Source: an uncultured Verrucomicrobiae bacterium
GTDB taxonomy: Bacteria; Verrucomicrobiota; Verrucomicrobiia; Chthoniobacterales; Chthoniobacteraceae
Direction of reading: 5' to 3'
NCBI GenBank assembly: GCA_963756185.1
Contig: CAVWMS010000001.1
Span: forward strand, 11,038 to 75,037
DNA length: 64,000 bases
Under the pieces are notes generated by a model. It made no database searches. It saw only the letters and a list, made by a program, of their open reading frames with translations, and was not told the DNA's origin. Below are positions 7,945 through 25,960 of the stretch, one piece after another (the first letter of the stretch is position 1; each line of letters starts with the position of its first letter). The position numbers and the translations under genes were made by a program.

Positions 7945-8168
7945 GGCAACGGGGAGGGTTCAACAAATTTTGTTGTTGGTCAATAATTATTGTTGACTGA
8001 CCGTAAGACGGCTGCTTACGGTGTGGTCATGGCAAATTCCTCTGTTCAAATTTGCGGCGCTCGAGGTGTTTGCGCTGAGGCTGGCTGGCGCGGCGCCGGA
8101 GGCGTAGCTGATTGCTCCAAATTGCTCCACGGAAGGGCGGAGCAGGTGCAAACCCTGATAAATACATG

Positions 8169-8240
8169 CTGCCTCGCTAGGACTCGAACCTAGACAAGCA
8201 GAGTCAGAATCTGCTGTGCTGCCAATTACACCACGAGGCA
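8169..8240 (-). tRNA. tRNA-Gln (anticodon CTG).
   Basis: Reverse complement is TGCCTCG-TG-GTGTAATTGGCAGCAC-A-GCAGATTCTGACTCTGC-TTGTC-TAGGTTCGAGTCCTA-CGAGGCA-G. It has a 7-bp acceptor stem (U1:A72), GTTCGAGTC T-loop and anticodon loop TTCTGAC. CCA is not encoded. Confidence 0.8.
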
Positions 8241-14973: not shown

Positions 14974-16548
14974 TTAGTTATTTGGCGTGCCGGTTTTTAC
15001 CTCGATGATGTCGTGGGGGGCGGATTCCTTCTGGCCGGCGGGGGTGATTCGGGCGAAGCGGGCGCGGCGGCGCAGCTCGACCAGGTTCGGGGCGCCCAGA
15101 TAGCCCATGCCGGATTGGACGCCGCCGACGAGTTGGGTCATCACGGCATCGAGCGACGGGGAAACCTCCTTCAAGGCCTCGACCCCTTCGGCGGCCACCT
15201 TGCGCGTGGCATCCTTTGTATGGCCGTAGCGCGCGGCGGAGCCCGCCTTCATGGCGGCCGGGCTGCCCATGCCGCGGTATTGTTTATAGGGCTTGCCGTT
15301 GATCTCGATGATCTGGCCCGGGGCTTCCGGGCATCCGGCCAGCAGGCCGCCGCAGATCACCGCGTGCGAGAGCGTGAGCGCCTTTACGATGTCGCCGCTC
15401 TTGGCGATGCCGCCGTCGGCGATGATGCTCACGCCGGCCTCTTGCGCGGCCTTGCCGCAGACGTAGAGCGCGGTCAATTGCGGAATACCGACGCCGGCGA
15501 CAATGCGCGTGGTGCAAATCGATCCCGGCCCCTGTCCCACCTTGATCGCGTCGGCGCCGCAGCGGGCGAGGTACTCGACAGCGGAGGCGCTGGTCACGTT
15601 GCCCGCGATGATCGGCAACTCCGGGAACGCGGCGCGAATGAGCCGCACGGTGTCGCCGACGCCCTTGCTGAAGCCGTGCGCGGTGGAAATCGCGACCGCA
15701 TCGACACCGCGGTCCACCAGCGCGCCGACGTGCTGGACGATGCGATTCTGGTCGAGTTCGCCGGTCGAGTTGCGGGTCGCGGAGACTGCCGCGCCGCAGA
15801 TGAGCCGGAAATTCGCGTCGCGGGCCGGCTTGAGCGGCGCGGCCTTTTCCTGGCTGATGCGCTCGATGTCGCTGAGGGTAAAGAGCCCGCGCAGCCGGTC
15901 CTGGTCATCGACCACCAGCAGCTTGTGGATGCCGATGTGCTCGTTGAAAAACTTGTCCGCGCGGGCGATGGGGTCGGGCTGCAATTCCCTTTCGGCGATG
16001 GTCTGGACCTGCTCGCGCGGCATCATCGCGTCGCTGACCTTGCGCGCGGCGTAGCGCGGGCGCACCACGTGGCCCGGCAGCAGGCCGAGCAATTTCCCGT
16101 GATCGTCCACGATGGGAAAGGTGCTGAAGGCAAAACGCCGTTCATCGATGAGCGCCAGCACGTCGCCGATGAATTGATCGGGCGACACCTTGATCGGCTC
16201 CTGGATGAGGCCATGGACGTGATATTTTACCCGGGTCAGCTCGGAGAGCTGCTGCCGGTCGGACATATTGTAATGGATGAGCCCGAGGCCGCCGTTGAGC
16301 GCCATGGCGATGGCCATGCGCGATTCGGTGACGGTGTCCATGTCCGCCGAGATGATGGGGATTTGGAGATGGAGCCGTTCGGCGAGCGCGGTTTCGAGGT
16401 TTGAGTCGCGTGGGAGAATTTCCGAGTACTGCGTGGCGAGCGTCACGTCGTCGTAGGTGAGCGCCACGCCCTGCTGCGCGGGAAAAAAGGAATCCGCCGG
16501 CTGATAGAAGGCGTCGTCAACAGCGGCGCATCGAGAGGAGTCTGCCAT
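14974..16548 (-). CDS. guaB: Inosine-5'-monophosphate dehydrogenase.
   Basis: CBS pair plus catalytic loop IIAGNV...[16 protein letters not shown]...GSICTTR, at 524 aa. Confidence 0.9.
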
Positions 16549-16637: not shown

Positions 16638-16707
16638 CTTGATTCACCTTGATTGACCTTGATTGACCTTGATTGACCTTGATTGACCTTGATTGACCTT
16701 GATTCTG
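16638..16707. repeat. Tandem 10-bp repeat (CCTTGATTGA)x7 in the divergent guaB / subtilase-operon intergenic region.
   Basis: The sequence reads gcttgattca ccttgattga x5 ccttgattct. It is a perfect head-to-tail array with no spacers. Confidence 0.85.
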
Positions 16708-16960: not shown

Positions 16961-17854
16961 ATGAGGACTTCCCTCGACTTGAGCGGCTTGACTTCGCTGA
17001 TGAGGCGAACGGCTGGCCGCAGGGGGGTCATCATCGGGCTCGTGGATGGGCCTGTGGATATGGGAAATCCGAATTTCGCAACTGAGGCGATTCGCGAAAT
17101 GGCCATGCATTCGCCAGGTCAGACGGGCGCCTGTAATTTTCCCCAGAGTAATTCGTGCCGGCACGGCACATTCGTGGCTGGCATTCTCGCCGCCAAGCGC
17201 GGCTCCGATGCGCCCGCGATATGTCCCGGATGCACTGTGCTGTTGCGCCCGATCTTTTCGGAGGAAGAATCATCGGATTCAATGCCCGCAGCTTCTCCGC
17301 GCGAACTTGCCGACGCCATCGTGGAGGTAGTGCAGGCAGGAGCCAATATTGTGAATCTCAGTTGTCAACTGCCGCGTGGTTCGGCAGGTGCGGAACGAGA
17401 CCTCGACGACGCCTTCAATTACGCCGCATCGCGCGGCGCAATTTGCGTAGCCGCGGCGGGCAACGAAGGATCGCTCGGAAGTTCCGCCATCACAAGGCAT
17501 CAATGGGTGATTCCGGTGGCCGCCTGTGACCGAACCGGCCATCCTACGGAAGGATCGAACCTGGGACATTCGATAGGCCGCCGCGGGTTGCTTGCTCCCG
17601 GCGACAGCATTCGCAGCCTCGGGGCCGAGCACGAAGACTATCCCGTGAGCGGCACCAGCGCGGCTGCGCCCTTTGTTGCCGGCGCGGCGGCGTTGCTTTG
17701 GTCGGAATTTCCCGAAGCAAAAGCGGTGGATGTCTGGCAGGCTCTCAACCTGATCCAAGTTTTGCGGCGCACCAGTGTGGTGCCGCCCCTGCTTGATGCA
17801 TGGCGATCGTATCAATGGCTGAATTCGCATTTTGGCAGGACACAAACCCTATGA
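16961..17854 (+). CDS. Subtilisin-like serine protease (peptidase S8) consisting of the catalytic domain only, with no signal peptide.
   Basis: Asp-box GVIIGLVDGPVD, His-box HGTFVAGILAA and Ser-box GTSAAAPFVAGAAALL. The N-terminus is hydrophilic. Confidence 0.8.
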   Translation: MRTSLDLSGLTSLMRRTAGRRGVIIGLVDGPVDMGNPNFATEAIREMAMHSPGQTGACNFPQSNSCRHGTFVAGILAAKRGSDAPAICPGCTVLLRPIFSEEESSDSMPAASPRELADAIVEVVQAGANIVNLSCQLPRGSAGAERDLDDAFNYAASRGAICVAAAGNEGSLGSSAITRHQWVIPVAACDRTGHPTEGSNLGHSIGRRGLLAPGDSIRSLGAEHEDYPVSGTSAAAPFVAGAAALLWSEFPEAKAVDVWQALNLIQVLRRTSVVPPLLDAWRSYQWLNSHFGRTQTL

Positions 17855-18069
17855 AAAAGGGAGGCAGAGCAACTGTATCCGAGCCCAGCAGTCCTCAGCC
17901 GCACGTCGTTCGCCTGCCTGGCTGGATCGTGAAGGAGGAGGTTGGACTCGGAGACGTCATCAAACGGGTCACCCGCGCGATTGGGATTCCGACCTGCCCG
18001 GGCTGCCAGCGTCGCGCCGACACACTTAACCGCTGGGTAAAAATCACCCCTGGCGACCACAAAACATAA
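17851..18069 (+). CDS. Small protein (73 aa) translationally coupled to the subtilase through an ATGA overlap.
   Basis: MKKGGRATVSEPSS...IPTCPGCQRRADTLNRWVKITPGDHKT. No recognisable domain. Confidence 0.45.
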   Translation: MKKGGRATVSEPSSPQPHVVRLPGWIVKEEVGLGDVIKRVTRAIGIPTCPGCQRRADTLNRWVKITPGDHKT

Positions 18070-18101
18070 ACACCAAAAATAATAACAAGAAAACCGACAT
18101 C

Positions 18102-19031
18102 ATGACAACAGCCACCGAGACCAATGAACCCGCCGACGCCGTCCAGGCAGCCAGCGACTCCAACCCGGTTACAGCCGCCGCGCCGGCAACTGCGCTTCCA
18201 AGAGCAGTTTCGCCCCCGGGCTCGTGTCCAACCTGCGCCACGGCGCCGGCTGGCGCCCGGGCAAATTCCTACGTCTGGGCAATTGGAAAGATCGAGCCAC
18301 AATTCATGGGCATTGCGGAGGAGAAGGAATACGCGCAGGTCGTCGGTGGTATTGAAACGGAGGGTCTTACCAAGCGCCAGGTCTTCTCCAAGGTGCTCAA
18401 AAATCCAAATTATCATTATTTAATGCGGGATGGTCTCGCTTGGATCATGAGAATTGGCGGGCAGGAGGTCTATGAGTTAAAGCCGCGCTACGAAAGCGAT
18501 TTTCATCTCCTCGTAGAGTCGTTTCAACCTGAGGTCGACTCAAACGCGCTTGACGCCGTTATTGGGACGAACGTCGGGATGCCGCGTCAAGGGCTACGCG
18601 GCGCACCGTTGCTGCCCGTCGTGAGAGTCCACCAGATTTATACCTTTACTAAAGAACATTTGATTAAGGGAATTCCAGGCGATAAAAAATCCCATACAAA
18701 AGAGTTCAACGCCTCTGCCCACGAGGTGCTCAATCGGATTCTGGCCTTTACGGAAAATCTCGGCAACACCGATTGCGACCGCGCGAAGAACTGGATCGCG
18801 TTGCGCAGTCCGTACCTTTACAAAATCGTGGCGGAATGTCATGGACGCGACTTGGAGTTGGCCAGGATAGAGTGCCGCCCCCACCCGCTTTCCGGAGCCC
18901 GCAACCTTGTCGACCTATTGCTCCGATTTGAGTCGCGAGGAAAGGAGTTTGGCGAGAAATATCGCGTTATTCTGGACATGACTGACGCCCTCCCGTTCCA
19001 AGTTTCCCCATTTGAGCGTTACTACGCTTAA
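18102..19031 (+). CDS. Hypothetical protein (309 aa) in the subtilase / cysteine-rich protein operon.
   Basis: Long ORF with lower GC. Ala/Pro-rich N-terminus with CPTC. No recognisable domain. Confidence 0.55.
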   Translation: MTTATETNEPADAVQAASDSNPVTAAAPATALPRAVSPPGSCPTCATAPAGARANSYVWAIGKIEPQFMGIAEEKEYAQVVGGIETEGLTKRQVFSKVLKNPNYHYLMRDGLAWIMRIGGQEVYELKPRYESDFHLLVESFQPEVDSNALDAVIGTNVGMPRQGLRGAPLLPVVRVHQIYTFTKEHLIKGIPGDKKSHTKEFNASAHEVLNRILAFTENLGNTDCDRAKNWIALRSPYLYKIVAECHGRDLELARIECRPHPLSGARNLVDLLLRFESRGKEFGEKYRVILDMTDALPFQVSPFERYYA

Positions 19032-19035
19032 TAAT

Positions 19036-20247
19036 ATGAACATGAGAATACCGCAATTCACCGCTGAACTGGCGCTGTCTTCCCCACGAAACTGGACTAA
19101 AGGGTTCGAAGTCGCCGAGTACGGCCCCAAAAGATCGACCATGCACTATCGCGCCGCTGGCTTTCGGAAGGCAGGGCAAGGCTCGCGGGGGGTCGTGCCG
19201 GCGCAGGACGGATGTGTTACATTGGGTGGGCAGATTTATTGCCCGGTGGTAGTAGGAAACCCGACGGCGTGTCCTCCCGGCACTTTCGGAATACCCCCAA
19301 ATTGCCAGTCCCTGCCCGCTTTTCCGCATTGTCCAATCGGGCAAACGAATTGTAATCCATTTGGAATACTACCTACGATGTGTACGAACCTTCAGACGGA
19401 TTCGAACAATTGCGGAAGCTGTGGAAACCAATGTAAGAACGGCCAGACGTGCCAAGACGGAGCTTGCGCCTGTCCAGGCGGGAAACCCCTCAATAGCTTG
19501 CAGAATTGCGGAACCTGCGGGCGCACCTGCACCGCCCCCTCGGGTGGGACCGCTTCCTGTGCTAACGGAAGCTGTAACTGGGTCTGCAACAGTGGCAGCG
19601 GCTACAGTAACTGCACCGGCCACAGCTGTACGAATACACAATCTGACCGGAACAACTGCGGCTCCTGTGGGTACATCTGTTCACAACACGTACCACAGAA
19701 TTCGACCGCGACGGGATGTACTAACGGACATTGCAACTGGCAGTGCAACAGCGGGTACACGGACCAAAGTGGGAAATGCATTCAAACGTGTCCGCAAGGC
19801 GATACCAGTTGCGGCGGGGCCTGCGTGAATCTTCAAACTGACCGGAACAACTGCGGCTCCTGTGGGTATAACTGTTCACAACACGTCCCGCAGAATTCGA
19901 CCGCGACGGGATGTACAAAGGGGCATTGCAACTGGCAGTGTAACAGCGGCTTTGTGGACCAAAACGGAAAGTGCGTTCGATCGTCAGGAGGCTGCGCTCA
20001 GGGTTACGAGAGCTGCGGAAGCGGTTGTTGTCCTGACGGAACGTGCTGTGACACCGTCTGCATGACATCTTCCGACGATACATGCTGCGGCAATGGGAAT
20101 GTTGCCACCGGGGATCAAATCTGCTGCGGCGGTGCCGGCTGTTCGACTGACGGTTGCTGCCAGACCGAGCTTGGATATACGTGCTGTGATCCCTGGGTGT
20201 GCTGCGGTGACGGCACTTGCGCTCCTGATAGCGATTCATGCGATTAA
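19036..20247 (+). CDS. Cysteine-rich protein with multiple Stig1-like D-x-x-N-C-G-x-C-G-x-x-C repeats. Paralog 1.
   Basis: LQTDSNNCGSCGNQC, TQSDRNNCGSCGYIC and LQTDRNNCGSCGYNC. N-terminal MNMRIPQFTAELAL with no Sec signal. About 17% Cys. Confidence 0.65.
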   Translation: MNMRIPQFTAELALSSPRNWTKGFEVAEYGPKRSTMHYRAAGFRKAGQGSRGVVPAQDGCVTLGGQIYCPVVVGNPTACPPGTFGIPPNCQSLPAFPHCPIGQTNCNPFGILPTMCTNLQTDSNNCGSCGNQCKNGQTCQDGACACPGGKPLNSLQNCGTCGRTCTAPSGGTASCANGSCNWVCNSGSGYSNCTGHSCTNTQSDRNNCGSCGYICSQHVPQNSTATGCTNGHCNWQCNSGYTDQSGKCIQTCPQGDTSCGGACVNLQTDRNNCGSCGYNCSQHVPQNSTATGCTKGHCNWQCNSGFVDQNGKCVRSSGGCAQGYESCGSGCCPDGTCCDTVCMTSSDDTCCGNGNVATGDQICCGGAGCSTDGCCQTELGYTCCDPWVCCGDGTCAPDSDSCD

Positions 20248-20277
20248 CAAAAATAGCTCCTTACTACTCCCGTTGAT

Positions 20278-22098
20278 ATGAAGATGACGGTCCCTGGATT
20301 TTTTGCCGAGTACGGTCTCGAGGGTGCCACCCGCCATTACCTGACGCTTGGCTCGGAGGAAACAGGGGGTCCCGGTTGGGATCTTGCTATGGCGACGAAC
20401 GTCTACCGAACGATGGCCGGCATTTCTGAGGCCGGCAATGTCTACGATCCCACGAGGCCAGCCGTGCGCCGCGATGGTCGTGGTTCGGGCTGCGTCGGCG
20501 GACCACCCTATATGCCATGCCTCAAGCAGGGAAGTCAGCCGGTATGCGCCGATGGGATTTGGGGAGGTGCCGGTGCTCCGCAGGGAACCCTCTGCTGGTC
20601 GCAATATCCGGAGATGGGCTACCAGGGGATTTGCAGTGGTGGCGGCGCGCCCGGAGGGAGAGGCGGCCTACCTCCCTCCCCTGGGTATTGCGACCCGTGC
20701 CCAACGGGGACAACTCTTTGCATCTCCGGAAACACCGGAGTTTGCTGCCCGGGCGTAGCGGAGTGTGAGAGAGGGAACTGCCACTGCCCCAATGGGGAGG
20801 TATTCTGCAACTCACAGTGTGTAGACACCCAGACCGACCCGAGGAACTGCGGGTTCTGCGACAAAGCGTGCCAGGCTGGACAGGTCTGCTGCAGCGGTTC
20901 TTGCACTGACATCAGCAGTGATAGTAACAACTGCGGAGCTTGCGGTAGCACATGTCAGCAGGGGGACGGAACGTGCTGCGGCGGTCGATGCTGTCCGGAG
21001 CGTTACGGGACCTGTTGTAACGGCCAGTGCTGCCCGGACCCCTTCTTTTGCTGCGGTAGTTCCTGCTGTTCCAACGGAGAGCTCGGCGGTGAGCCGCAAG
21101 CCTGCTGCAACGGCAGCTGCCAGCCCCAGGACGAGCAGCACTGCGGTTTTTCCTGCCAATCGTGCACAGGAGGCCAAACCTGCCAGCTTGATCCCTCGCA
21201 GGGCTATCACGGTTATGCATGCCTTTGCTCAAGTGGGGAAACACTCAGCAATGGTCTGTGTTGCCCATCAGGGCAGACAAACTGCAACGGCAATTGCGTA
21301 GCCCCGCCGGGCGCCGGCGCTCTTAGTAGCAACAGCAATTTCATGCTCTCGAACAATTGCGTGAGTATAGCGGGTCCGAATGGCAGTCTGAAAGTATCAT
21401 TGCTGGCTGGAACGGAGGATTTGGTTTCAGAAAATGGATTCTCGTTTCAGCTGAACGGGTTTCCTCCACCGCTGACGCCTACGTCACCGAATGGGTGCCC
21501 TTCCTCTGCTGATTTTTGCTGCATGGCTCCAACTGGAGTTTGCATAATGCAATATATTATCCGAGTTAGTGGGAACAATGTTTCTCCTTGGATTCAATAC
21601 TTTCAAAACAGCGGAGTGGAAAATCCGAACAACGACCCGTTTGCCACGCTGCCTGCCGGGAAGGCGAACACCCTTCCTGCCGGGTGGGCTCTCGAAATCA
21701 CATTGGAAAACGACGAGAATGGGAATGTCGATGGGATAATCCTTAGCGTCATAGACAACACCGGGCACACGGTTGGCTGCGCTGACCAAGGGCAGACAGG
21801 TTCCTGCCAACAAATGCCGATGCCGGTGGATCCCAATTCTGGCCTGCCACTCTTGTTCGCAAATCTAGCTTTTTCGGCAGTCGCGGTCGCTCTCCCGGGG
21901 AGTAGCGAGGCTAAGTTCACGTCTGGGGGCGGATGCATCACCTACGAAGTTTCAGAGGGGCAATTATGTGAGACGCAGGATAATTGCACGAACTTCGATG
22001 CGGGTACAACTGAGCAGTCAAACGCTTCCTACGGTGCCTTGAGCGCCACGTGTGGCTCCTCCTTGAGTCAATCCGTAACCACTTCGGATGCGTCCTAG
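20278..22098 (+). CDS. Cysteine-rich Stig1-like repeat protein with a C-terminal domain shared with the 22395 gene. Paralog 2.
   Basis: TQTDPRNCGFCDKAC and ISSDSNNCGACGSTC. The C-terminal ...GFSFQLNGF...ITYEVSEGQLC...YGALSATCGSSLSQSV aligns with the C-terminus of paralog 3. N-terminal MKMTVPGFFAEYGL. Confidence 0.65.
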   Translation: MKMTVPGFFAEYGLEGATRHYLTLGSEETGGPGWDLAMATNVYRTMAGISEAGNVYDPTRPAVRRDGRGSGCVGGPPYMPCLKQGSQPVCADGIWGGAGAPQGTLCWSQYPEMGYQGICSGGGAPGGRGGLPPSPGYCDPCPTGTTLCISGNTGVCCPGVAECERGNCHCPNGEVFCNSQCVDTQTDPRNCGFCDKACQAGQVCCSGSCTDISSDSNNCGACGSTCQQGDGTCCGGRCCPERYGTCCNGQCCPDPFFCCGSSCCSNGELGGEPQACCNGSCQPQDEQHCGFSCQSCTGGQTCQLDPSQGYHGYACLCSSGETLSNGLCCPSGQTNCNGNCVAPPGAGALSSNSNFMLSNNCVSIAGPNGSLKVSLLAGTEDLVSENGFSFQLNGFPPPLTPTSPNGCPSSADFCCMAPTGVCIMQYIIRVSGNNVSPWIQYFQNSGVENPNNDPFATLPAGKANTLPAGWALEITLENDENGNVDGIILSVIDNTGHTVGCADQGQTGSCQQMPMPVDPNSGLPLLFANLAFSAVAVALPGSSEAKFTSGGGCITYEVSEGQLCETQDNCTNFDAGTTEQSNASYGALSATCGSSLSQSVTTSDAS

Positions 22099-22394
22099 AA
22101 TTCTACAAGCCAGTTTTGGCGTGCCTATGTTGGGCTTCGAAATCGCCCCCTATTGCAGCATTAAAAAAGGAATAAACCGTGTTCAATCCACTTGCTCCCG
22201 TCTGGCGAGACACCGCCATTGGTCACTACACGTATTTTACGAATGGAGAGGAAAATGCCTCCCCTATTTGAAGGATGCCCAATTGCACGAAAACAAAGGT
22301 TACTATGACAATTACCGCGGAGAACAATGAACTGACAAGCGCCCTCCAGTCGGACGCCAAAATCACACACTAAGACGACCATTAGAACAATTAT

Positions 22395-23570
22395 ATGAAC
22401 CTGCCCCAATTTACGGCCGAGTTTGCGCTTTACCGGTCAAAGAATGTCTACCGGGAAAATGGCGCTGCCGCCGAAATGACGGATTGGGACCCGCAAATAC
22501 TACCGGCGGGACCGTCGCAGCATCCTGGTGGCGGTTTTGGTGGCGGTCCTCAGGTCCATTGTGTGGCACCCTATTCACAATGTGGAAATGTCTGCAAGGA
22601 TCTGAGTACGGATGCCGCTAACTGCCATGAGTGCGGCAATGTTTGCGCAGATGATATGTGCTGCATAGGGGGTAGATGCACGACGGTTGACACCAATTAT
22701 GATAGTAATAACTGTGGAGACTGTAATAGCAAATGCCCTTTGATTGCGCCATTTTGCTGTAGCGGTGAATGCCTCACCATCGAAATGGCTGAAAAGTGCC
22801 AGAATTGTGGCACCAATTGCCCGACCGGGTATTACTGCGGTGGCGATGGCTACACATGCATCGCATGCCCGGCGGGACCAGATCCCATACAATCGCCGGG
22901 AAGCAATGTTAATTATATAATGTACAACTCATGCTCGCCCATTGACCAGCTGAGTTATTCTATGTATGTCAATAAGGATCTCGTCTCGGGATCGGGCGGT
23001 TTTTCTCTGCAATTCAATAATTATACAAAGGCGACGGGTTACGAAAATACGGTCATTCAGCTTATTTTCCACGTAAGCGACCAAATTTTGGCCCATATAC
23101 AATATCCGGGAGGCACCCCTGATGGAATTGATCATGATTGGCAGAAGAGCTTTTCAAAAATTACATTGGAGAACGATACGTTGCCCGCTCATTACACATT
23201 GGGGGTTGCTCTCAGTAATGATGGCAACGGGAATATTAATGGAGCTGCCTTTACGGTTGAAGATAATAATGGGAAGAGTTACACAATCTCTGCCCCTGCT
23301 TCTGCCTTTCCTTCCGGGAAGTATCTGTATCCCATTTCCGAATTCCAAGCGAATCTTGTCGGGTATGGCGGGGGCGCGACCGCGAGCTTTTCTCCCGGAG
23401 GAAAGGCAACAATAACTTACTCCTCGGAGGGACAACTATGCGTAGAAGGGGCTAATCCAAATTGTACAGGCAGTGATCTTATAACGGATGAAAAAGCGAA
23501 TACCGGATATGGAGAATTGAGCAGTTGCTGTGGTGGGTCTTTAACGCAGCCGGTATTTATTACTTCTTGA
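22395..23570 (+). CDS. Cysteine-rich Stig1-like repeat protein, paralog 3. Lower GC.
   Basis: MNLPQFTAEFAL N-terminus, LSTDAANCHECGNVC and YDSNNCGDCNSKC. The C-terminal ...GFSLQFNNY...ITYSSEGQLC...YGELSSCCGGSLTQPV is paralogous to the 20278 protein. Confidence 0.65.
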   Translation: MNLPQFTAEFALYRSKNVYRENGAAAEMTDWDPQILPAGPSQHPGGGFGGGPQVHCVAPYSQCGNVCKDLSTDAANCHECGNVCADDMCCIGGRCTTVDTNYDSNNCGDCNSKCPLIAPFCCSGECLTIEMAEKCQNCGTNCPTGYYCGGDGYTCIACPAGPDPIQSPGSNVNYIMYNSCSPIDQLSYSMYVNKDLVSGSGGFSLQFNNYTKATGYENTVIQLIFHVSDQILAHIQYPGGTPDGIDHDWQKSFSKITLENDTLPAHYTLGVALSNDGNGNINGAAFTVEDNNGKSYTISAPASAFPSGKYLYPISEFQANLVGYGGGATASFSPGGKATITYSSEGQLCVEGANPNCTGSDLITDEKANTGYGELSSCCGGSLTQPVFITS

Positions 23571-25159: not shown

Positions 25160-25840
25160 TTACTCGGCGGTGCGGGCGCGGCGTGGCGACTTGAAATCGA
25201 TGATCTGGGCGGCGGCGTCCTCGGGGTCGCGAGCGCCGGTGATGAGGCTGACGACTTCGATGCCGCCGCGCTCCATGTCGCGCATGAGGGTATTGACGCG
25301 GGAGGAGAGATAGCTGTAGGCGGCGAAGGAGGGGATGGCGACGACGAGGCCGGCGGCGGTGGTGAGGAGGCTCTGGTAGATGCCGCCGGAGAGATCGGTG
25401 GTGCTGGCGAGGCCGCTGTGGCTGGAGATGGTGACGAAGGTTTCGATGAGGCCGGTGACGGTGCCGAGGAGGCCGATGAGGGGGGCGATGAGGGCGATGG
25501 TGCCGAGGAGGCCGAGGTTGCGTTCGAGGTTGGCCATTTCGAGCTGGCCGGCTTCCTGGACGATTTCCTTGAGTTCATCGCGCGGGGCCTCGTGGCGGAT
25601 GATGGCGGCGTGGATGACGCGTGCGACAGGTCCCGGCGTACCTGCGCATTCATGCAGAGCCTCGGCGAAATTGCGGCGCTGAATGAGGTTGGCGAGGCCG
25701 CGGAGGAATTCTCCGACGCGAATGCTTGCCCGGTAGTAATAAGTGACGCGCTCGGCAAAAATGGCCGCGGCGATCACGCTGCAGACGAGGATGAGCCACA
25801 TGAGCGGCCCACCTTTTTGCATGTAGTCCAGCATGGAGGG
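25160..25840 (-). CDS. exbB: MotA/TolQ/ExbB proton-channel protein.
   Basis: LMWLILVCSVIAAAIFAERV..., ...LGTIALIAPLIGLLGTVTGLI... Start at MLDYMQKGG. The upstream (NL)n segment comes from the hexamer repeat and is noncoding. Confidence 0.75.
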   Translation of the reverse strand, partial: PSMLDYMQKGGPLMWLILVCSVIAAAIFAERVTYYYRASIRVGEFLRGLANLIQRRNFAEALHECAGTPGPVARVIHAAIIRHEAPRDELKEIVQEAGQLEMANLERNLGLLGTIALIAPLIGLLGTVTGLIETFVTISSHSGLASTTDLSGGIYQSLLTTAAGLVVAIPSFAAYSYLSSRVNTLMRDMERGGIEVVSLITGARDPEDAAAQIIDFKSPRRARTAE

Positions 25841-25912
25841 GAGGTTATAGGGCAAGTCGGGGGGGAAGCAAGGGGGAAGGCAGCCCTGATTTCGGGGGCT
25901 AGGGGAGGCTGA

Positions 25913-25960
25913 GTTCAGGTTCAGGTTTAAGTTCAAGTTCAAGTTCAGGTTCAGGTTCAA
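25913..25960. repeat. Tandem hexamer (GTTCAR)x8 flanked by about 34-bp direct repeats (AAGGGGGAAGGC..CCCTGATTTYGGGGGCTAGG), lying within the operon between the Pro-rich gene and exbB.
   Basis: The sequence is gttcag gttcag gtttaa gttcaa gttcaa gttcag gttcag gttcaa. The direct-repeat copies are at 25870..25903 and 25959..25994. Confidence 0.8.

Follow-up and report, generated by a model that had tools for sequence, protein, structure and literature searches.

The DNA considered here (hereafter the window) is a stretch of 64,000 nucleotides (nt) from an uncultured Verrucomicrobiae bacterium of the Chthoniobacteraceae (contig CAVWMS010000001.1, positions 11,038 to 75,037). Positions 16961-23570 hold six open reading frames (ORFs), all on the plus strand and tightly packed (Table 1), as described in an earlier reading of the sequence (the original prediction). 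The genes encode an S8 subtilase, a small conserved protein, and a free-standing PatG domain of unknown function (DUF), as well as three large cysteine-rich cargo proteins. Together they represent one copy of a four-part system, widespread in bacteria, that is made up of the first three genes (the trio) and the leader-bearing precursors that follow them. The system is apparently undescribed. It is not confined to Stig1-like proteins, and its usual cargo consists of hypervariable cysteine-rich peptides of about 47 amino acids.

Table 1. Coordinates of the operon, of domains within its products, and of the upstream flanking gene
Feature	Positions	Strand	Remarks
PatA-like subtilase (S8), 297 amino acids	16961..17854	+	Pfam PF00082
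Small conserved protein, 72 amino acids	17851..18069	+	Without Pfam/NCBIfam family
Free-standing PatG DUF protein (PatG_D + PatG_C), 309 amino acids	18102..19031	+	PF18047, PF18065
Cargo protein 1, 403 amino acids, 58 Cys	19036..20247	+	Leader, then Stig1-like repeats; without jelly-roll
Cargo protein 2, 606 amino acids, 60 Cys	20278..22098	+	Divergent leader, Stig1-like repeats, C-terminal ConA-like domain
Cargo protein 3, 391 amino acids, 26 Cys	22395..23570	+	Leader, Stig1-like repeats, C-terminal ConA-like jelly-roll
Concanavalin A (ConA)-like C-terminal domain, 606-amino-acid protein	21304-22095
ConA-like jelly-roll domain, 391-amino-acid protein, residues 162-391	22878-23567
IMP dehydrogenase gene	14974-16548	minus	Upstream flank of operon

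Gene organization and N-termini

The stop codon of the S8 gene (TGA, 17852-17854) overlaps the ATG of the small-protein gene at 17851 in an ATGA junction, as predicted. An overlap had also been proposed between the PatG-DUF gene and the first cargo gene, but a 4-nt gap separates the stop codon at 19029-19031 from the ATG at 19036, and only a mechanical ORF that begins with TTG at 19012 overlaps the PatG-DUF gene. A hydropathy check found no N-terminal hydrophobic stretch or transmembrane (TM) segment in the six proteins. Over their first ~70 residues the three cargo proteins reach a maximum 12-residue Kyte-Doolittle score of <=1.15, and the sole KD19 (Kyte-Doolittle) peak of the 606-amino-acid protein, 1.84, sits within its jelly-roll domain. 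By the same check the cargo proteins have no h-region, twin-arginine motif, or lipobox, in agreement with the claim that they lack Sec, Tat, and lipoprotein signals.

The loci with which the window was compared were obtained by scanning species-level genomes with an alignment of the PatG-DUF family, which gave 392 confirmed loci. Locus details refer to the best 80 of these, gene-content counts to 88 sources, and motif statistics to 181 ORFs in other genomes.

One alternative to a dedicated system is that ordinary secreted Stig1-like proteins with mis-called start codons lie by chance beside a protease with which they have no functional link. Stig1-like repeats by themselves are unremarkable in bacteria, as their matches to the MXAN_6577-like family indicate. 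However, in-frame stops lie 3-24 codons 5' of all six starts (3-18 for the three cargo genes), which excludes longer N-termini and means that re-calling of the starts cannot yield signal peptides. Additionally, about 80 loci from different phyla contain both the leader and the trio, and the absence of a functional link is effectively refuted.

The S8 protease

The S8 protein is a member of the PF00082 family (2.5e-25, 89.8 bits; cut-off 21.8) with an intact catalytic set composed of D29 (VDGP), H68 (HGT), N168 (GNEG), and S233 (GTSAAAP). It has no signal peptide and no propeptide. Extra conserved cysteines are arranged as C58-x8-C67-x-H68 and I-C88-P-G-C91. Across the loci, [IVL]C[PAS]xC (ICPGC in the window) is found in 69 of 73 S8 proteins and C-x5-12-C-x-HG in 65 of 73. 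Each locus has one S8 gene, and apparent duplicates are pieces of a single gene.

The original prediction had guessed at a LanP- or PatA-like protease, and the closest structures in the PDB are those of the N-terminal cyanobactin proteases PagA and PatA (4h6w, 4h6v, 3zxx, and 3zxy, ~1e-25). The alignment with these proteases is colinear over residues 6-248. The NCBIfam model for the PatA/PatG maturation protease (TIGR03895), which spans protease and DUF in a single chain, has a cut-off of 421 bits; the PatG-DUF protein reaches 24.1 bits and the S8 protein 104.8 bits, both below it. The top NCBIfam match of the S8 protein is the type VII secretion system mycosin (TIGR03921), an assignment that was rejected because the score is 128.4 bits against a cut-off of 278.75 and no TM anchor is present. 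The PatA-type enzyme of this system is split into separate, divergent genes for protease and DUF, with the small gene between them.

The likeness to PatA raises the possibility of a cyanobactin-type pathway in which the S8 protein is a PatG-like macrocyclase making head-to-tail cyclic peptides. Both the S8 and PatG-DUF proteins are homologous to cyanobactin enzymes, and multiple precursor genes are found per locus. However, the match to PagA and PatA is far better than that to the PatG macrocyclase (4aks, only 8e-12), and the macrocyclase insert is absent from the S8 protein. The loci have no YcaO heterocyclase, and the small protein has no NCBIfam or Pfam model. The precursor cores are 20-600 amino acids long instead of 6-8, and no conserved C-terminal follower motif was found among the 181 precursor ORFs. 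A macrocyclase role for the S8 protein was rejected on its PDB matches, the missing follower motif, and the single S8 per locus, leaving a cyclizing pathway of this type very improbable.

The PatG-DUF protein and the small CxxC protein

The products of the second and third genes had been listed as unknown. This holds for the small protein, which has no curated family, while the 309-amino-acid protein proved to be a PatG DUF. It matches PF18047 (1.3e-15, 58.3 bits; cut-off 27) and PF18065 (1.5e-20, 73.8 bits; cut-off 25.9), and a profile of its family has a single match in the PDB, the DUF of PatG (4uvq, 9e-10). A conserved C-P-T-C motif lies in the N-terminal ~55 amino acids, which are disordered; an AlphaFold2 model (predicted local distance difference test (pLDDT) <50 for residues 1-54, mean 63) was used solely for this disorder. 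The N-terminal CxxC (C[P/A]TC) occurs in 60 of 84 homologs. The public NCBI/ENA call of the protein is an N-terminally truncated version of 241 amino acids that drops the CPTC motif and the YVWAIGKIEP block (P0004 vs P0015). The 309-amino-acid start is backed by homologs and by the Logan call.

The small protein has a conserved core of ~45 amino acids, VRLPGF..EEEIGLGDVIKR.T.A.GIKPCGGCE.RAAALNRWM.F, with the CxxC retained in 69 of 76 homologs. It has no Pfam or NCBIfam match even at E <= 10, although 572 representative clusters were found among 1.84 billion proteins, nearly all of them 65-100 amino acids long. In a few proteins (P0106, P0128, P0147, and P0195) the domain occurs as a fusion with between one and three AhpC/TSA-Redoxin (thioredoxin-fold) modules, and two of these proteins (P0106 and P0195) also carry an N-terminal TM helix. 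No S8 or PatG-DUF gene lies near the fusion genes at loci L088 (8001-10441) and L090. The gene that comes after the L088 fusion codes for a 244-amino-acid cysteine-rich repeat protein with a twin-arginine-like signal, SRREAFKRVGGALAG. The fusions and this cysteine-rich neighbor suggest that the domain generally partners thiol chemistry on cysteine-rich clients. The CxxC motifs of the trio, which may act as redox-active pairs or as zinc sites by which a complex is kept assembled, link the machinery in theme to thiol chemistry.

Leader and core of the precursors

The N-terminal motifs of the three cargo proteins are exactly as quoted in the original prediction, and motifs of this kind head 181 ORFs beside homologous trios in other genomes, far beyond chance. 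The proline-anchored consensus is P-G-F-T-A-E-A-S-L-Y-[RK]-T-S-G-[HR]-Y-[RQ], located 3-9 residues from the start codon, and is referred to here as box 1 (M..PGFTAEASLY..S..Y; PQFTAE in the window). A motif scan gave 201 hits in 81 sources, nearly all of them directly 3' of the PatG-DUF gene and on the same strand, with 1-7 leader-bearing ORFs downstream of the trio at each locus. Of the seven loci that gave no hit, five carry slightly divergent leaders. Neither Pfam nor NCBIfam has a curated family for the leader at E <= 10.

The proposal that PQFTAE is a leader was borne out as to its conservation, but the motif is only the first box of a leader of ~38-60 amino acids. Cleavage probably falls downstream of it, at a second motif, [VIL]-x-P-[Q/A], that mostly starts 29-38 residues from the initiator Met. 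This second motif is present in 105 of the 181 ORFs (chance expectation 5.5, maximum 13 in 200 shuffles). The cysteine content rises from 0.27% in the leaders to 11.9% in the cores with a sharp boundary at [VIL]xP[QA], and this downstream site is preferred because the boundary falls there. FTAEAS was considered as a counterpart of the PatA site GLEAS and rejected, as the window proteins have ELAL, EFAL, and EYGL at the corresponding place. The median lengths of leader and core are 38 and 47 amino acids, with cores ranging from 20 to 600. Whereas 180 of the 181 leaders form one similarity cluster, the cores fall into 89 clusters, 70 of which are singletons.

Among small precursors that contain cysteine, the number of cysteines is even in 116 of 148 and odd in 32 (p = 2e-12). 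It is even in 27 of 30 large precursors, and the cargo proteins of the window likewise have even counts. Parity of this kind is the pattern expected of disulfide pairing and points to disulfides in the products.

This parity bears on the alternative that the products remain in the cytoplasm as metal-binding or redox-active cysteine-rich peptides resembling metallothioneins or chalkophores, with the CxxC motifs of the trio serving metal or thiol handling. Such a role would accommodate the conserved CxxC of the S8 protein, the small protein, and the PatG-DUF N-terminus, as well as the AhpC/TSA-Redoxin fusions of the small domain. Several copper-dependent nitrifiers and methanotrophs are found among the best 80 loci, and a conserved exporter is lacking. 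However, the strong bias toward even counts is a signature of disulfides and not of metal clusters, the hypervariable cores have no recurrent metal-binding spacing, and a lectin-like jelly-roll domain is part of the large cargo. A cytoplasmic metal or redox function therefore appears improbable.

Two families of small cores recur. The first, ..VIPAIPxCxNCDxILxRCxxNGWxPRAxCxAC.., is found at loci L012, L017, L019, L021, L030, L054, L057, and L081. The second, ..GIYRGKA...MPQxRFQSDPDLGAYLRCRANGGSDLICRFFGGLPPFTIGGLL, has a hydrophobic tail and is found at L017, L026, L042, L061, L066, L067, L079, and L081. Both families cross phyla behind one and the same leader and look horizontally shared, and they are possibly membrane active.

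The large cargo proteins of the window

The Stig1-type modules that had been noted in the three large proteins are present as [DNS]xxNC[GH]xC[GNSD]xxC, with four, two, and two copies in the 403-, 606-, and 391-amino-acid proteins. The Stig1 model (PF04885, threshold 24.1) gives 31.3, 34.7, and 36.4 bits, respectively, as a match of sequence repeats only. The model of the uncharacterized MXAN_6577-like family (NF041328) gives 66.7, 34.7, and 21.2 bits, all under its cut-off of 100 bits. The NCGxCG repeats match only these two families.

In the 403-amino-acid protein the leader would comprise residues 1-56 (nt 19036-19203), MNMRIPQFTAELAL...GVVPA56/QDGC, where the slash marks the candidate cleavage site (VVPA/Q). 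The protein starts MNMRIPQFTAE, and its box reads IPQFTAELAL. The predicted leader of the 391-amino-acid protein spans residues 1-38 (nt 22395-22508), MNLPQFTAEFALYRSKNVYRE...QILPA38/GPSQ, with ILPA/G as candidate site, and includes LPQFTAEFALYRSKNVYRE. The leader of the 606-amino-acid protein is divergent (MKMTVPGFFAEYGL...TRPA62/V, box VPGFFAEYGL) and has a weak candidate cleavage site at nt 20463. Homologs of the large proteins (P0002, P0003, and P0018-P0024) share the leader, as in MATPGFTAECGLYRS, MAMPSYTAGLALYRS, MCIPGFTAQAALY, and MRLPGFNASSSLYKTSSHYR.

The second C-terminal domain that had been described for two of the proteins is confirmed as a region of ~230 amino acids common to the 606- and 391-amino-acid proteins (BLASTP 5e-27). 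An AlphaFold2 model of residues 162-391 of the latter is of high confidence and all beta (pLDDT 88.9, predicted template modeling score (pTM) 0.88). The modeled beta-jelly-roll is superimposable on the concanavalin A-like lectin/glucanase family and is assigned to that fold. The most economical guess is that the domain is probably glycan binding, or possibly glycan cleaving. It has 56 homologs (P0026-P0066 among them), some with a leader and cysteine-rich repeats, and its family has no Pfam model. Many of the homologs are free-standing proteins of ~230 amino acids with neither leader nor signal peptide, such as MGLSSSNNAILF..., whereas ricin-B (PF14200/PF00652) or tachylectin (PF14517) lectin domains are appended in a few. 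Large cargo of 200-650 amino acids is a minority that occurs in several lineages, while small cargo predominates elsewhere.

Distribution of the system

The trio is found in a constant order, S8, ~70-amino-acid CxxC protein, and PatG-DUF. The S8 gene is present in 80 of 88 sources, the small-protein gene in 79, and the PatG-DUF gene in 87, and the sources without S8 include loci whose contig ends beside the PatG-DUF gene. All-vs-all clustering of the locus ORFs of at least 120 amino acids found no transporter, immunity protein, or modifying enzyme conserved beyond the trio and the precursors. The closest relatives of the S8 and PatG-DUF proteins come from a peat metagenome contig and a Limisphaerales metagenome-assembled genome (MAG). 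On metagenomic contigs with close PatG-DUF homologs the trio is followed by one to three large Stig1-like proteins, and in a Bryobacteraceae MAG several small ORFs take the place of the large proteins.

The best 80 of the 392 loci include many from Acidobacteriota, together with Verrucomicrobiota, Planctomycetota (Brocadia and Gemmataceae), Chloroflexota, and Actinomycetota. Also represented are Nitrospira, Nitrosospira, Nitrosovibrio, Nitrosomonas, Nitrotoga, and Nitrolancea (Nitrosomonadaceae included). Methylococcaceae, a cyanobacterium, Flavobacteriaceae, and others complete the set. Carriage by phages was rejected, as PatG-DUF relatives are absent from the viral contig collection. Cultured Mesorhizobium, Sinorhizobium, and Streptomyces do carry the family on plasmids. 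In two plasmid records (Mesorhizobium sp. B2-1-1 plasmid pB2-1-1, ~437.6-441.2 kb, and a plasmid of Streptomyces sp. NBC_01568, 3.2-5.9 kb) the genes are labeled only "S8 family serine peptidase" and "hypothetical protein". The leader ORFs that come directly after them, at 5832-6560 of L091 (NZ_CP083955) and 5236-5600 of L092 (NZ_CP109351), have no gene listed in the PLSDB tables, which are incomplete. A literature search on the motif strings, PF18065/PF18047, and the system found no description, although the searchable library is incomplete and an earlier description is possible.

Proposed mechanism

It appears fairly probable that the system carries out leader-guided proteolytic maturation in the cytoplasm, kin to leader removal in the cyanobactin and lanthipeptide pathways. 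The proposed precursors have a cysteine-free N-terminal leader with box 1 and, usually, a terminal [VIL]-x-P-[Q/A]. A cytoplasmic complex of the PatA-like S8 protease, the PatG-DUF protein, and the ~70-amino-acid CxxC protein would recognize the leader through box 1, and the S8 protein would cut after P-[Q/A]. This would release a hypervariable cysteine-rich product whose cysteines may then pair as disulfides. In most genomes the predicted product is a ~47-amino-acid peptide resembling a bacteriocin or an unmodified peptide of the ribosomally synthesized, post-translationally modified class (RiPP). In the window the products would be the three large Stig1-like repeat proteins, two of which end in the ConA-like jelly-roll domain. 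Cleavage by the S8 protein, the position of the cut, the partner that binds the leader, and the exit of the product from the cytoplasm are put forward here on the basis of sequence comparison. What the sequences show is the content and order of the genes, the identities of the domains, the leader/core architecture, the cysteine parity, and the lack of both signal peptides and a conserved exporter.

The original prediction had proposed cytoplasmic recognition and processing of the leader by the protease. This proposal is supported, with processing and secretion as inferences. None of the checks suggested with it refuted it: the motif is conserved in the homologs of the large proteins and in ORFs of other genomes, the linkage to S8 holds in 80 of 88 sources, no signal peptide is attainable from other start codons, and the repeats match only Stig1 and, under its cut-off, the MXAN_6577-like family.

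Several points weigh against leader-guided maturation. The evidence for the candidate cleavage site is its conservation, and the strict [VIL]xP[QA] is missing from 76 of the 181 leaders, while the 606-amino-acid protein has only the weak TRPA. Disulfide-rich products would have to reach an oxidizing compartment, and the loci share no conserved exporter that could account for this. Published work found no binding of linear substrates by the PatG DUF (PMC4663559), which makes a leader-binding role for this domain speculative. Lastly, the loci were gathered via the PatG-DUF gene, so that leaders outside the trio fall beyond the sampling.

A second explanation overlaps with leader-guided maturation and differs from it on the purpose of the leader. 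The leader may instead be mainly a targeting signal for a Sec- and Tat-independent export machinery encoded elsewhere, with the S8 complex acting as a dedicated signal peptidase or gatekeeper and not as a RiPP-style maturation enzyme. Export is implied by the disulfides that the even cysteine counts suggest, Sec/Tat signals and TM segments are absent, and Stig1-like repeats, like the ConA-like domain, are characteristic of proteins outside the cell. Additionally, cargo of up to 600 amino acids is far above the size of a RiPP core, and the loci hold no modifying enzyme for which a leader would be required. However, no transporter or other membrane protein is conserved in the ~80 loci, all three trio proteins look soluble and cytoplasmic, and such a signal is used by no known secretion system. 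A leader that serves mainly for export is considered unlikely, though less so than a metal or redox function.

A bolder form of the leader-guided maturation hypothesis is offered tentatively and is itself rather unlikely. It holds that the trio and its PGFTAEASLY-type leader are a new Sec- and Tat-independent pathway for the maturation and release of disulfide-rich products ranging from 20-amino-acid peptides to multidomain proteins of 600 amino acids, in which the PatG/PatA DUF would be a subunit for recognition or handling of the leader. This would be the first function for that domain.

Comparison with known systems

The S8 domain is most like that of the cyanobactin protease PatA/PagA, and a PatG_D/PatG_C DUF is encoded alongside the protease in both cases. 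Both proteases are cytoplasmic and have no signal peptide, and in both cases the precursors, often encoded by several genes per locus, are genetic neighbors of the protease and combine a conserved leader with variable cores. The obligatory genes of Pat-type clusters include no exporter, with an ABC transporter mentioned only for the cyanothecamide cluster (PMC4663559); likewise, none is conserved here. However, the protease and DUF are separate genes in this system, with the novel ~70-amino-acid CxxC protein between them, and the second protease (the PatG macrocyclase) and the YcaO heterocyclase (PatD) are missing. Counterparts of the small proteins PatB and PatC were likewise not identified: the small protein matches no curated family, and no further ORF family is conserved in the loci. 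The leader of this system is unrelated to PatE and has neither AYDG nor the sequence behind which PatA cleaves, G(L/V)E(A/P)S (PMC10885120). The cysteine-rich cores of 20-600 amino acids also differ from the 6-8-amino-acid cassettes of cyanobactins. A 2015 review reported cyanobactin clusters from cyanobacteria only (PMC4663559), whereas the present system occurs in many phyla.

In the class I lanthipeptide proteases LanP and ElxP, an S8 enzyme acts as N-terminal leader remover, as is proposed here. The leader of subtilin ends in ...ITPQ, which the candidate site of this system resembles. The candidate [VIL](-4)-x-P(-2)-[Q/A](-1) also resembles (D/E-5)(L/V-4)xx(Q-1), the sequence recognized by the cytoplasmic S8 protease ElxP (PMC10885120). 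The system differs from lanthipeptide loci in having no LanB, LanC, or other modifying enzymes, box 1 is not an FNLD box, and among PDB chains the S8 protein is nearer to PatA than to those of the subtilisin or LanP type.

Unmodified class II-like bacteriocins that contain disulfides and double-glycine microcins share with this system a short conserved leader, hypervariable cores with even cysteine counts, paralogous precursors, and plasmid carriage. However, the leader here does not belong to the double-glycine class, and neither a C39 peptidase-ABC exporter nor a conserved immunity gene was found in the loci. As for Stig1, the DxxNCGxCGxxC modules are over the Pfam threshold in all three large proteins, but plant Stig1 proteins are small and secreted by Sec, whereas here the repeats form the core of proteins that bear a leader and no signal peptide. 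With respect to RiPPs, the leader/core architecture is present and no modifier besides the protease is conserved; disulfides would be the sole modification, as suggested by cysteine parity. The system resembles leader removal of the PatA or LanP kind without being a cyanobactin, lanthipeptide, or double-glycine bacteriocin pathway. In kind it is classed as subtilase leader-dependent peptide maturation, and it is unusual in its split PatA architecture, new accessory protein, protein-sized cargo, and lack of an exporter.

Potential significance

If the proposed mechanism is correct, the system represents a large source, as yet untapped, of hypervariable peptides that are genetically encoded and rich in disulfides (392 loci, with 181 precursor ORFs in the best 80 of them). 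Soil Acidobacteriota, nitrifiers, anammox bacteria, and rhizobial and Streptomyces plasmids are among the carriers, and the peptides would be candidates for bacteriocins or signals in nitrogen-cycle communities. Cyanobactin-type proteases and the PatG DUF would not be limited to cyanobacteria, and the split architecture would offer a simpler setting in which to study the function of the DUF. A leader on whole proteins of 400-600 amino acids would raise the question of how they fold, become oxidized, and exit without Sec, Tat, or a dedicated exporter. Annotation and genome-mining pipelines may miss this class of precursors, as the two plasmid records and their incomplete gene tables illustrate.

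Genomic setting and other features of the region

The operon is flanked by the IMP dehydrogenase gene and an ExbB/ExbD cluster, both on the minus strand. The drop in GC content that had been noted is present: the cargo 3 gene has the lowest value of the six (0.486), the other five range from 0.55 to 0.61, and the whole window has 0.617. The low GC content of the operon relative to the window fits horizontal acquisition into a housekeeping neighborhood. An AT-richer spacer of 296 bp (22099-22394) lies between the genes for the 606- and 391-amino-acid proteins, whereas the other gaps in the operon are 4-32 nt. Together with the GC content of the last gene, this spacer suggests that the 391-amino-acid gene may have been added separately or may have its own promoter.

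A 10-bp tandem repeat, CTTGATTGAC, is present in 6.7 copies (98% matches) at 16638-16704, in the intergenic region between the divergent IMP dehydrogenase and S8 genes and ~260 bp 5' of the start of the S8 gene. A regulatory element, a phase-variable element, and an insertion scar are all possible readings of this repeat. A single tRNA-Gln(CTG) gene (8168-8240, minus strand) lies ~9 kb upstream of the operon. On the other side, the hexanucleotide GTTCAG is repeated 7.8 times at 25913-25959, inside the minus-strand ExbB-like ORF at 25160-25960, where it codes for an N-terminal MNLNLNLNLNLNLNLN extension of the longest ExbB/MotA-family ORF. Either the true start of this ORF is downstream of the repeat or the repeat is a slippage-prone tract.

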